In this document: positions 29,090 through 30,800 of the stretch, in pieces
How the letters are laid out: every line of letters begins with the position of its first letter
How positions within the stretch are numbered: position 1 is the stretch's first letter
Assembly: GCF_002305855.1 (NCBI RefSeq)
Contig: NZ_CP022163.1
Coordinates: forward strand, 6,939,765-7,003,764
Source: Melittangium boletus DSM 14713
GTDB lineage: Bacteria; Myxococcota; Myxococcia; Myxococcales; Myxococcaceae
Reading direction: 5' to 3'
Length of the DNA: 64,000 nt
Translations under genes and position numbers: made by a program
Notes under the pieces: model-generated
Databases searched by the model: none
What the model was told of the DNA's origin: nothing
Seen by the model: the letters and a program-made list of their open reading frames with translations, nothing else

Positions 29090-30304
29090 ATGCAAGCCAA
29101 TCCCAATCCTTCTCAAGAGCGGACTCCCGCTGGACTGCTGTCGTTCTTCTCCCAGGCCCATGTTCCCACGGAGTATGGGAATGTGCAGGTCACCGTCTTC
29201 GTGGATGAGCGGGTGGTCGGGCGGGGCGCCCCATCCCACGAGCACATGGCCTTGGTCTTTGGCGACGTCCGCGAGGGGGAGGACGTCCTGGTGCGCATCC
29301 ATTCGGAGTGCTGGACTGGCGAAGCCCTGCATTCGCTCAAGTGTGACTGCCGCGAGCAGCTCGACGCGGCGCTGACCACGATCGCCAAGGCACGCCGCGG
29401 GGTGGTGCTCTACCTGCGCCAGGAGGGACGCGGCATCGGACTGGGCAACAAGATCCGCGCGTACGCGCTGCAGAATCAGGGGCTCGACACCTTCGCGGCC
29501 AACCGCGCGCTGGGCTTCGCCGACGATCTGCGCGACTTCTCCATCGCCGGGGAGATGCTCGCGTACCTGGGAGTGCGCTCCGTCTCGCTGCTTACCAACA
29601 ATCCGCTGAAGATCTCCGGCCTGGAGGCGAGCGGCATCCGCGTCGTGAGCCGTCGGCCCATGCCCGCGACGACCAATCCCCACAACGCCAGCTACCTCGA
29701 GACGAAGAACGCGCAGATGGGCCATGACATCCGCTCATGGCTGGACGCCCAGGTCGGGGGCCCCTCGCGCATCACCTTCACCGCCGAGCAGGTCGGCGAG
29801 CGGGTGGCGGGGCTGGCGCGGGAGATCGCGCGGGACTTCGCGGGCAAGGAACTCGTCGCCGTGGGGGTACTCAGCGGCGGCTTCATGTTCTTCGGGGACC
29901 TGCTGCGTCAGCTCCAGCTCGCCCAGGCGGAACTCGGCGTGGCGCCCATCACGTTGCACTGCGGCTTCATGGGTTTGCAGAGCTACGGAGACGGGGAGCG
30001 CTCCACGGGCGTCCTGCGGACCACGGCCGATCTGGCGTTCCCGGTCAGTGGCAAGCACGTGCTGCTCATCGAGGACATCGTGGATACGGGAATGACCCTC
30101 AGCTATCTGCGCGAGAACCTGGCGCTGCGCCAGCCCGTGGACATCAAGGTCTGCGCGCTGCTGCATCGGAGCCGGCACGCCTCCATCCAACGCCCGCTCG
30201 ATTACGTCGGCTTCACCCTGGATACCGACGACTTCGTGTTTGGGTATGGAATGGATTACAAGCAGCGCTTCCGCGAGTTGCCCTTCATCGCCACGCGCGG
30301 GTAA
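29090..30304 (+). CDS. bifunctional GTP cyclohydrolase II (RibA-like) / hypoxanthine-guanine phosphoribosyltransferase fusion (404 aa)
   Basis: N-half: VRIHSECWTGEALHSLKCDCREQL (Zn Cys triad), YLRQEGRGIGLGNKIRAYALQNQGLDTFAANRALGF, LLTNNPLK, matching GCH-II. C-half: VGVLSGGFMFFGDL, KHVLLIEDIVDTGMTLSYL (PRPP motif), VFGYGMDYKQRFRELPFIA (HPRT C-terminal signature). Start at the internal ATG at 29090 (MQANPNPSQ...). Confidence 0.8.
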   Translation: MQANPNPSQERTPAGLLSFFSQAHVPTEYGNVQVTVFVDERVVGRGAPSHEHMALVFGDVREGEDVLVRIHSECWTGEALHSLKCDCREQLDAALTTIAKARRGVVLYLRQEGRGIGLGNKIRAYALQNQGLDTFAANRALGFADDLRDFSIAGEMLAYLGVRSVSLLTNNPLKISGLEASGIRVVSRRPMPATTNPHNASYLETKNAQMGHDIRSWLDAQVGGPSRITFTAEQVGERVAGLAREIARDFAGKELVAVGVLSGGFMFFGDLLRQLQLAQAELGVAPITLHCGFMGLQSYGDGERSTGVLRTTADLAFPVSGKHVLLIEDIVDTGMTLSYLRENLALRQPVDIKVCALLHRSRHASIQRPLDYVGFTLDTDDFVFGYGMDYKQRFRELPFIATRG

Positions 30305-30332
30305 CCCCGCCGAATTCCTCACGGGAAAGCCA

Positions 30333-30800
30333 ATGACCATCCAAAAGCAGATCTACTGCCGCAAGCCGACGCTGTCTGAAATGGAGCAGCTGTTTGCCCT
30401 GGGCGCCACGCATGTCGCCTGGGGGGTGGAGCCCTCCGCCGCACCGGAGCTGGAGCTCTCCCGCCGCATCGTCGCCCAGGCGCGCAAGGAGCGCATCGGG
30501 ACCGTGGTGCTGGTGGGCGAGCCCCGGATCGACGCCCTCGAGCGGGTCGCGCTCGAGGTGGAACCGGACTTCCTGCTCGTCGCGGCGGAGCACATCGGCC
30601 AGGGCATCGACGAGCAGGATTTGCCCGGACTGGCCCGCCGGCTGGGTCCCAGGACGGCGCTGATGATGTCCGTCCCCGTGCGCGTGGCGGGCTCCCGCGT
30701 GGAGCTGGACTCCATCGCCAGGGCTCAGCGCTATCAGGAGTTCGCGGGCAGCCTCATCCTCGACACCCGCCTGGAGCCCGAGGACGGAGCGCTCTGTGGG
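30333..30800 (+). pseudogene. TrpF-like (phosphoribosylanthranilate-isomerase-fold) gene, 3' end replaced by IS5 insertion
   Basis: MTIQKQIYCRKPTLSEMEQLFALGATHVAWGVEP...VVLVGEPRIDALERVALEVEPDFLLVAAEHIGQG...YQEFAGSLILDTRLEPEDGAL resembles the PRAI layout (KiCGit...GAd.lGfvf...VgVF.n...v..v....ldlvQLHG.E...LLD). The reading frame runs into the IS5 end at ~30790 and terminates aberrantly. The call rests on weak similarity. Confidence 0.35.

Follow-up and report, generated by a model that had tools for sequence, protein, structure and literature searches.

What does a GTP cyclohydrolase II (GCH II) do in one polypeptide with an HGPRT-type phosphoribosyltransferase, and what became of the genes that should follow it? 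The question is raised by a locus of Melittangium boletus DSM 14713 that lies within a 64,000-nucleotide stretch of contig NZ_CP022163.1 (positions 6,939,765 to 7,003,764 of the forward strand), called the window below, with positions counted from its first letter. Analogy with the RibA and TrpF enzymes of E. coli and Chlamydia suggests that the locus is most likely a pterin bypass of the RibA/TrpF type in dedicated, partly fused form, to which an HGPRT domain is added, and that the window holds only a decayed remnant of it. We put the chance at a little better than even that the intact operon, found in related bacteria, is a route to a reduced, probably unconjugated, pterin that is independent of GTP cyclohydrolase I (FolE).

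A GTP cyclohydrolase II fused to an HGPRT-type domain

The fusion gene lies in a plus-strand open reading frame (ORF) at 28853-30304, with the ATG at 29090 as its probable start. The coding region is thus 29090-30304 and encodes a protein of 404 residues that is identical to NCBI ATB32307.1. A complete GCH II domain and a complete HGPRT-type domain are joined by a linker of about 10 residues with no stop codon. In Pfam the ORF matched GTP_cyclohydro2 (PF00925, 8.8e-59, 198 bits against a cutoff of 23.3, ORF residues 101-269) and Pribosyltran (PF00156, 7.7e-20, ORF residues 313-469). Note that these residue ranges are counted along the ORF at 28853-30304 and not from the ATG at 29090. Numbered from that ATG, the domains are as follows.

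29090..29734, plus strand: GTP cyclohydrolase II domain, residues 1-215 (PF00925, TIGR00505 and alignment with PDB 2bz0)
29735..30304, plus strand: HGPRT-type phosphoribosyltransferase domain, residues 216-404 and the stop codon (PF00156, TIGR01203 and the HGPRTs of the PDB)

The GCH II domain scored above the NCBIfam ribA cutoff (TIGR00505, 241.3 bits vs 205.85) and aligned with E. coli RibA (PDB 2bz0) with an E value of 1.6e-57, retaining the Cys triad and the equivalents of Tyr105 and Arg128. The triad binds zinc, Tyr105 is required for full deformylation and Arg128 is the guanylyl nucleophile (E. coli numbering). The likeness to E. coli RibA and to RibBA lies in the catalytic domain, whereas the partner here is an HGPRT rather than DHBP synthase and there is no riboflavin context. 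A preliminary description of this DNA had proposed an intact GCH II fused to an intact HGPRT; the Pfam, NCBIfam and PDB alignments agree with that proposal, and all of the motifs it quoted are present. Two further genomes and several metagenome contigs carry the same fusion, which rules out an assembly artefact.

The fusion is rare. Two protein searches were made, one word-indexed against 5.8 billion proteins and the other an exhaustive HMMER search of 1.84 billion representatives clustered at 50% identity. In the first, PF00925 and PF00156 were combined in only six clusters: M. boletus together with Cystobacter ferrugineus, a JGI contig (82% identity), Sorangium sp. So ce1151 (77%) and three metagenome proteins (about 56%). 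In the second, a single representative (P0002) gave a full-length match, and the family of about seven sequences makes up one 50%-identity cluster. Literature searches found no description of the fusion or of the operon in which it occurs. The other proteins having two matching stretches, P0142, P0165 and P0168 among them, were rejected as HGPRT fusions because they are GCH II duplications or RibBA proteins. A separate group of proteins of about 440 residues (P0025-P0032, e.g. L175 10001-11326) has GCH II fused to a class I methyltransferase; these are about 60% identical in the GCH II domain and have no TrpF-like neighbour.

The simplest explanation would be an ordinary riboflavin RibA fused by chance to a housekeeping Hpt, and both the ribA equivalog-domain cutoff and, just, the HGPRTase cutoff are indeed passed. 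However, none of the loci has adjacent rib genes, the fusion forms a single 50%-identity cluster among the 1.84 billion representatives, and it is linked instead to genes for a TrpF-like protein, a dihydrofolate reductase (DHFR)-family protein and a GAF protein. No ribD, ribE or ribH was found beside the fusion, in the scanned ORFs of the window or in the related loci L001, L003, L005, L008 and L177. A chance fusion of this kind is therefore highly improbable, and an ordinary riboflavin function, contradicted by both context and rarity, is excluded. The preliminary description had likewise judged the arrangement not to be a riboflavin operon, a view it would have given up for a common housekeeping fusion of Myxococcales having ribD/ribH neighbours. 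The fusion proved to be rare and to have no rib neighbours.

The adjacent gene encodes a truncated TrpF paralogue

The ORF that follows the fusion (30333-30848, plus strand) is identical to ATB32308.1, which is annotated "hypothetical protein". As judged from its full-length homologues, ATB32308.1 is a truncated paralogue of TrpF, the phosphoribosylanthranilate isomerase (PRAI).

30333..30802, plus strand: TrpF (PRAI) paralogue, first 157 codons of a protein of about 237 residues; the frame reads on into insertion sequence (IS) DNA and stops at 30848

Alignment of the ORF to its homologues ends at "...GALCGC", at about position 30802, and the truncated protein lacks strands beta7-beta8 and the phosphate-binding part of the barrel. 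The window ORF gave no Pfam or NCBIfam match of its own. In contrast, PF00697 (PRAI) is carried by P0123 and by all 14 of the other full-length homologues (224-247 residues); in P0123 the match scored 43 bits (cutoff 22.7) and covered only the C-terminal half. The best score against the NCBIfam TrpF equivalog was 78.8 bits with a cutoff of 216, and thus these proteins are divergent paralogues rather than orthologous TrpF. A profile of the family matched Thermotoga maritima TrpF (1lbm, E 3.8e-11) with an invariant Asp aligned to Asp126, and a near-invariant Cys in "QIYCR" falls at the end of predicted strand 1, where its equivalence to T. maritima Cys7 is by position only. The fold is a (beta-alpha)8 barrel to which TrpF structures are closest. 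There is no trp operon context: the neighbours are GCH II, protein X, DHFR and GAF genes, or a short-chain dehydrogenase/reductase (SDR) gene and others. The weak TrpF similarity reported in the preliminary description therefore holds at the level of the homologue profiles, the PDB profile matches and the fold, but not for the window ORF itself, which has no detectable profile similarity.

Scans of genome and metagenome contigs for TrpF-like proteins returned mostly proteins of Acidobacteria and Chloroflexota that are similar only in the C-terminal "RPWGVDAC" region, and no GCH II, X, DHFR or GAF gene was found beside these matches. Hundreds of the proteins (L015-L090 and L093-L170, matching near position 10001 in most loci) are from Acidobacteria (Bryobacterales/Solibacterales) and have about 45-50% identity confined to the C-terminal third of the paralogue, including RPWGVDAC. 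They are possibly the ordinary TrpF of that lineage and the nearest relatives of the paralogue. In a different setting (L172 3941-5007, and also L173 and L174), a 43%-identical TrpF-like gene without GCH II overlaps a MazG-like gene and lies near pP_pnuc_1 and Exo_endo_phos genes, a context that may be of the nucleotide-modification or defence type.

An intact five-gene operon in relatives

The uninterrupted locus was found in C. ferrugineus (L177 8048-11953), where five genes follow a LysR gene: the GCH II-HGPRT fusion (404 residues), the PRAI-like protein (237), protein X (299), a DHFR-family protein (157) and a GAF-only protein (176). Sorangium sp. So ce1151 (L001 10001-13996) has the five genes in the same order, and metagenome contigs L003 and L005 have most of them plus a methyltransferase gene. 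In blastn, window positions 28919-30802 matched L177 7829-9760 with 94.9% identity over 1933 bp; the fusion proteins are 97.8% identical and the TrpF fragment is 96% identical to its C. ferrugineus counterpart. Upstream of the fusion the match includes two further features.

28919..28946, plus strand: final ~8 codons, with the stop, of a gene for a LysR-family regulator, and the left breakpoint (homology begins at 28919 = L177 7829, within the LysR gene at L177 6954-7856)
28947..29089, plus strand: retained intergenic/leader segment upstream of the fusion, homologous to the C. ferrugineus LysR-fusion intergenic region except for an indel of ~50 bp

No sigma-70-like promoter was scored in the leader (28947-29089), and no X, DHFR or GAF gene was found in the whole 64-kb window. 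On this comparison, 28919-30802 is the 1.9-kb 5' remnant of a five-gene operon that has been cut on both sides. The pathway is broken in M. boletus: the TrpF paralogue is cut after codon 157, and X, DHFR, GAF and the upstream LysR are gone. The disruption of the module that the preliminary description had proposed is thus seen directly on comparison with the intact locus of relatives.

The fusion ORF is the only operon gene still intact in M. boletus. Between M. boletus and C. ferrugineus it differs at 25 of 1212 positions (DNA about 98% identical), with a dS of 0.054 and a dN/dS of 0.19. When the substitutions were polarised with an outgroup, the M. boletus branch had six synonymous and four non-synonymous changes and the C. 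ferrugineus branch six and five, counts too small to speak for relaxed selection. Recent horizontal transfer was considered from the low divergence (dS 0.054) and dropped, as the histidine kinase encoded next to the remnant has 95% identity to its Cystobacter fuscus counterpart and the genera are close.

Elsewhere, X and DHFR-family genes form an adjacent pair (L178 6160-7561) on a 15-kb contig on which no GCH II or TrpF-like gene was found; X seems to be tied to the reductase.

A proposed FolE-independent route to reduced pterins

The proposed chemistry has a precedent in E. coli RibA acting together with Chlamydia TrpF (CtL2), a pair that converts GTP via the diaminopyrimidinone ribotide to 7,8-dihydroneopterin monophosphate, bypassing FolE and FolQ (PMC4161248). 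In the intact operon the GCH II domain, as its conserved catalytic residues suggest, would convert GTP to 2,5-diamino-6-ribosylamino-4(3H)-pyrimidinone 5'-phosphate plus formate and pyrophosphate. By analogy with the RibA/TrpF pair, the TrpF paralogue would then catalyze an Amadori rearrangement of the N-ribosylamine and ring closure to give 7,8-dihydroneopterin 3'-phosphate. The preliminary description had already pointed to an Amadori rearrangement of the GCH II product, and direct biochemical precedent for it exists (PMC4161248). The DHFR-family enzyme would reduce the dihydropterin to a tetrahydropterin, a step that would fall to a pteridine-reductase-like SDR in another cluster type, and X and the GAF protein would act later in the route or have regulatory roles.

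Independent architectures link GCH II to the TrpF paralogue, which is genetic linkage only. Besides the operon there are three further arrangements: a cluster (L008/L009) of genes for GCH II, a PRAI-like protein, an SDR, an O-methyltransferase, a TAL/FSA-family aldolase, a HAD phosphatase and an EamA exporter, a second cluster (L171) of GCH II, a flavodoxin-like reductase and a PRAI-like protein, and a direct GCH II-PRAI-like fusion protein (P0056). The operon reductase belongs to the DHFR family (PF00186, 1.7e-33), and the two best NCBIfam matches of the L008 SDR were TmpR dihydropteridine/dihydrofolate reductase (184 bits) and pteridine reductase (167 bits), both below cutoff. With either a reductase of the DHFR family or an SDR resembling pteridine reductase as the partner, the direction indicated is that of a reduced pterin.

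These partners also bear on an earlier proposal, that the locus is a specialised-metabolite module making toxoflavin, a deazapurine or another pyrimidine-derived compound from the GCH II product. Toxoflavin-type pathways do begin with GCH II, methyltransferases are found in L003, L005 and L008 and as the partner in the fusions P0025-P0032, and L008 resembles a small biosynthetic cluster with an exporter. However, no RibD/ToxE-type deaminase-reductase, ToxD, ToxC or ToxA was found in any related locus, and the methyltransferases, present in only some, are generic. The deazapurine genes for GCH I, QueD, QueE and QueC are likewise missing, and the conserved partners are pteridine-type reductases. 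The preliminary description favoured such a product; it did not stand up to these comparisons, and we regard it as rather unlikely.

A folate function was also considered. In such a scheme the GCH II/TrpF pair would replace FolE and FolQ, and the DHFR would be an extra or resistant dihydrofolate reductase, making the operon a folate bypass or an antifolate-resistance cassette. This is the role shown in Chlamydia (PMC4161248), and the NCBIfam matches of the operon DHFR include trimethoprim-resistant Dfr families, below cutoffs. However, no folB, folK, folP or folC was found in L001, L003, L005, L008 or L177, a core folate function would not be so rare or so patchily distributed, and M. boletus survives despite its destroyed operon. 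Moreover, neither Arg of the folate-tail binding segment "GRpLpgRkN" is present in the operon DHFRs. In E. coli DHFR these residues include Arg57, the binder of the folate glutamate tail. We consider the folate scheme unlikely, and the missing pair would weakly favour an unconjugated pterin as the substrate of the operon reductase.

Several observations weigh against the pterin route. Every chemical step of the operon scheme is inferred. Protein X had no recognisable family or fold match, and the GAF protein no informative match, PDB included. Haloarchaeal DHFR also lacks the second Arg, which weakens the argument from the Arg pair. The scheme leaves the HGPRT domain without a necessary role, the substrate of GCH II being GTP and the product of HGPRT being GMP. 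In three of the fusions (P0004-P0006), the HGPRT motif that binds phosphoribosyl pyrophosphate (PRPP) and Mg is lost (DGICNTG, DCISNTS and DTISHTG), with the catalytic Asp changed to Gly. Finally, contig L002 (5019-6233) has an 82%-identical fusion that stands alone, with no adjacent TrpF-like gene and followed by the C-terminus of a convergent sigma-54 activator, so the protein may be of use to the cell even where the other operon genes are missing.

The closest known system is the RibA plus TrpF bypass of Chlamydia trachomatis (Adams et al. 2014, PMC4161248), which likewise consists of a GCH II and an enzyme of the PRA-isomerase fold, with the same proposed chemistry. There, an ordinary riboflavin RibA and an ordinary, promiscuous TrpF, encoded at separate loci, feed folate synthesis (PMC4161248). 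In contrast, the system described here, known from sequence alone, combines a dedicated GCH II paralogue, extended by an HGPRT domain, with a divergent TrpF paralogue; the two are adjacent or fused, and their neighbours are pteridine-type reductases rather than folBKP. The proposed net reaction of the GCH II plus TrpF-like pair would be the same as that of FolE except that its product is a monophosphate, whereas FolE is a single unrelated enzyme with a triphosphate product.

If the pterin reading is true, free-living soil bacteria (myxobacteria and uncultured relatives) have two dedicated, co-evolved enzymes that stand in for GTP cyclohydrolase I. To our knowledge, RibA/TrpF chemistry has until now been known only as a promiscuous patch in Chlamydia. 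The operon would then be a new entry route to reduced pterins and would add three uncharacterised families, those of protein X, the GAF protein and the TrpF paralogue, together with a rare domain fusion in which no role is assigned to the HGPRT half, and it may identify the pterin source for bacterial nitric oxide (NO) synthases or hydroxylases. Two of the operon carriers, C. ferrugineus and Sorangium, are cultivable.

The HGPRT domain of the fusion

The HGPRT domain of the fusion scored narrowly above the HGPRTase cutoff (TIGR01203, 159.5 bits vs 150) and below that of PRK09162 (84 bits vs 181), and matched Thermoanaerobacter tengcongensis HGPRT (PDB 2geb) with an E value of 4.5e-36. It shares with Hpt/HGPRT (PDB 2geb, 3acb and 1g9s) the fold and the EDIVDTG and GYGMDY...R motifs. 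Unlike those enzymes, it forms the C-terminal part of a GCH II protein, and in one subclade its motifs are degenerate. It also has a 10-residue insertion relative to canonical HGPRTs that is specific to the fusion family and, in the alignment, common to all seven members, and the canonical Lys that contacts purine O6 (LLDK/LLSK) is replaced by Arg in seven of seven. M. boletus, C. ferrugineus and P0002 retain both the PRPP/Mg loop (E-D-x-x-D-T/S-G) and the Asp of GYGxDY, whereas the loop of the Sorangium fusion is altered to KDIVDTG and P0004-P0006 have neither motif. As judged by these motifs, a catalytic role of the domain is not universal within the fusion family.

Comparison of the M. boletus and L002 fusions gave dN/dS values of 0.25 for the HGPRT domain and 0.27 for the GCH II domain. 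The two domains are thus under similar purifying selection, which indicates that the HGPRT domain is maintained; among the myxobacterial fusions it is under selection as part of the enzyme. Most likely it either feeds guanine into the guanine-nucleotide pool of the pathway or is a regulatory module that binds guanine or a pterin. As GCH II needs GTP and not GMP, coupling of salvage to ring opening, such as the preliminary description had envisaged, would be metabolic at best. In L003, a stand-alone xanthine-guanine phosphoribosyltransferase gene, gpt (287-751; NF006613, 199 bits), lies directly upstream of a fusion with degenerate HGPRT motifs, and this extra Gpt hints at a salvage role for the HGPRT domain.

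The lone fusions of M. boletus and L002 would be explained if the protein were a self-contained enzyme of purine-ring editing or sensing, for which we see a small chance, taking its two versions together. In one, the fusion would open GTP, NO would turn the product into 8-aza-GMP and the HGPRT domain would convert this to or from 8-azaguanine. In the other, the HGPRT domain would be a pseudo-enzyme that binds guanine or a pterin and exerts feedback control over GCH II, a bacterial counterpart of GFRP control of GCH I.

NO-linked editing may also be considered for the locus as a whole: the vicinal-diamine product of GCH II would react with NO-derived species to give 8-aza-GMP and HGPRT would interconvert this and 8-azaguanine, making an antimetabolite or scavenging reactive nitrogen. 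This would give the HGPRT domain a direct role, as 8-azaguanine is a classical HGPRT substrate, and would explain the lone fusion in L002 and in M. boletus. In addition, the Sorangium operon has an NO synthase with a fused reductase 3 kb away. 8-Aza-GMP is formed non-enzymatically from the E. coli RibA product plus nitrite, a reaction used in a study of 8-azaguanine (PMC7109123), and in yeast NO derivatives are scavenged by the GCH II product (PMC7138843). In contrast, the known 8-azaguanine cluster encodes a GCH I homologue and a nucleosidase rather than GCH II and HGPRT (PMC7109123). An NO synthase was found neither within 10 kb of the C. ferrugineus operon nor on the metagenome contigs or in the window itself. 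At equilibrium the HGPRT reaction lies on the side of the nucleotide, the HGPRT motifs are degenerate in P0004-P0006, and NO editing leaves the conserved TrpF paralogue, DHFR, X and GAF unexplained. It is thus improbable as an account of the operon, for which the pterin route remains our preferred reading.

The Sorangium NO synthase (L001 3437-6841, 1134 residues) has a C-terminal flavodoxin/FAD/NAD reductase in a mammalian-like order and lies upstream of the operon, with two opposite-strand genes between. This enzyme might consume the pterin or, if NO editing were to hold, supply the NO.

The junction with the IS5-family fragment

How was the operon cut on its right side? A minus-strand ORF at 30806-31909 encodes an IS5-family transposase (NF033580, 193 bits, cutoff 110) with DUF4096 and DDE_Tnp_1 matches. 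Repair of a frameshift raised the score to 218 bits, with the match covering profile positions 3-247 of 258. The preliminary description had placed the frameshift at the C-terminus, and the other reading frame of the transposase gives "...FNKFRRLLVRWEKRED". The fragment and its boundary are as follows.

30803..31602, minus strand: remains of an IS5-family transposase gene with a frameshift close to the C-terminal end; the last ~11 profile positions are missing, as is the IS end next to them (NF033580, DUF4096, DDE_Tnp_1)
30790..30803, no strand: junction of the operon remnant with the IS5 fragment; ~12 bp fit both, identity with C. ferrugineus stopping at ~30800-30802 and the repaired transposase aligning through the codons at 30790-30801

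Matches of blastn to plasmid-borne IS5-family transposases start at about 30800-30811. An exact 12-bp direct repeat, GCTCTGTGGGTG, occurs at the junction (30791-30802) and again inside the transposase gene (31021-31032). That the junction copy fits both parents suggests a microhomology-mediated join, although chance could also account for it. No terminal inverted repeats or target-site duplication of the IS5 element were found, nor was a second IS5 copy in the 64-kb window, and the missing 3' part of the TrpF-like gene was found neither beyond the IS nor anywhere else in the window. Compared with IS5-family insertion sequences (the NF033580 group), the element is alike in its DUF4096/DDE transposase (193-218 bits) but is incomplete, being frameshifted and missing an end. 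As the transposase and TrpF-like genes are both truncated at the junction, a deletion or rearrangement rather than a simple insertion is indicated. The view that an IS5 element interrupts the module is thus correct insofar as the module is disrupted and the TrpF-like gene ends at the IS5; it is not correct as a simple insertion, because both genes are truncated and the operon is also cut upstream.

Other genes of the window

The IS remnant is separated from the histidine kinase gene by a C-terminal gene fragment (31700-32046, plus strand) spread over two frames ("...VKLAQALGMPYEEALWGWEL" and "GSEREAAFTRAHEGFSRLGCVELSRRAG" with its stop codon), which appears to be a piece of a further pseudogene. 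Another transposase gene, unrelated to the first (18391-19710, minus strand; DDE_Tnp_1 plus DDE_Tnp_1_assoc) is found about 10 kb upstream, indicating that the region has seen more than one mobile-element event. The flanks of the operon remnant hold genes for an SMP-30-like lipoprotein and the histidine kinase and further unrelated genes, and nothing there looks connected with pterins or flavins. Toward the right end (56853-63965, minus strand) is an apparently unrelated non-ribosomal peptide synthetase gene that encodes 2370 residues with two condensation, two adenylation and two carrier domains plus a thioesterase.

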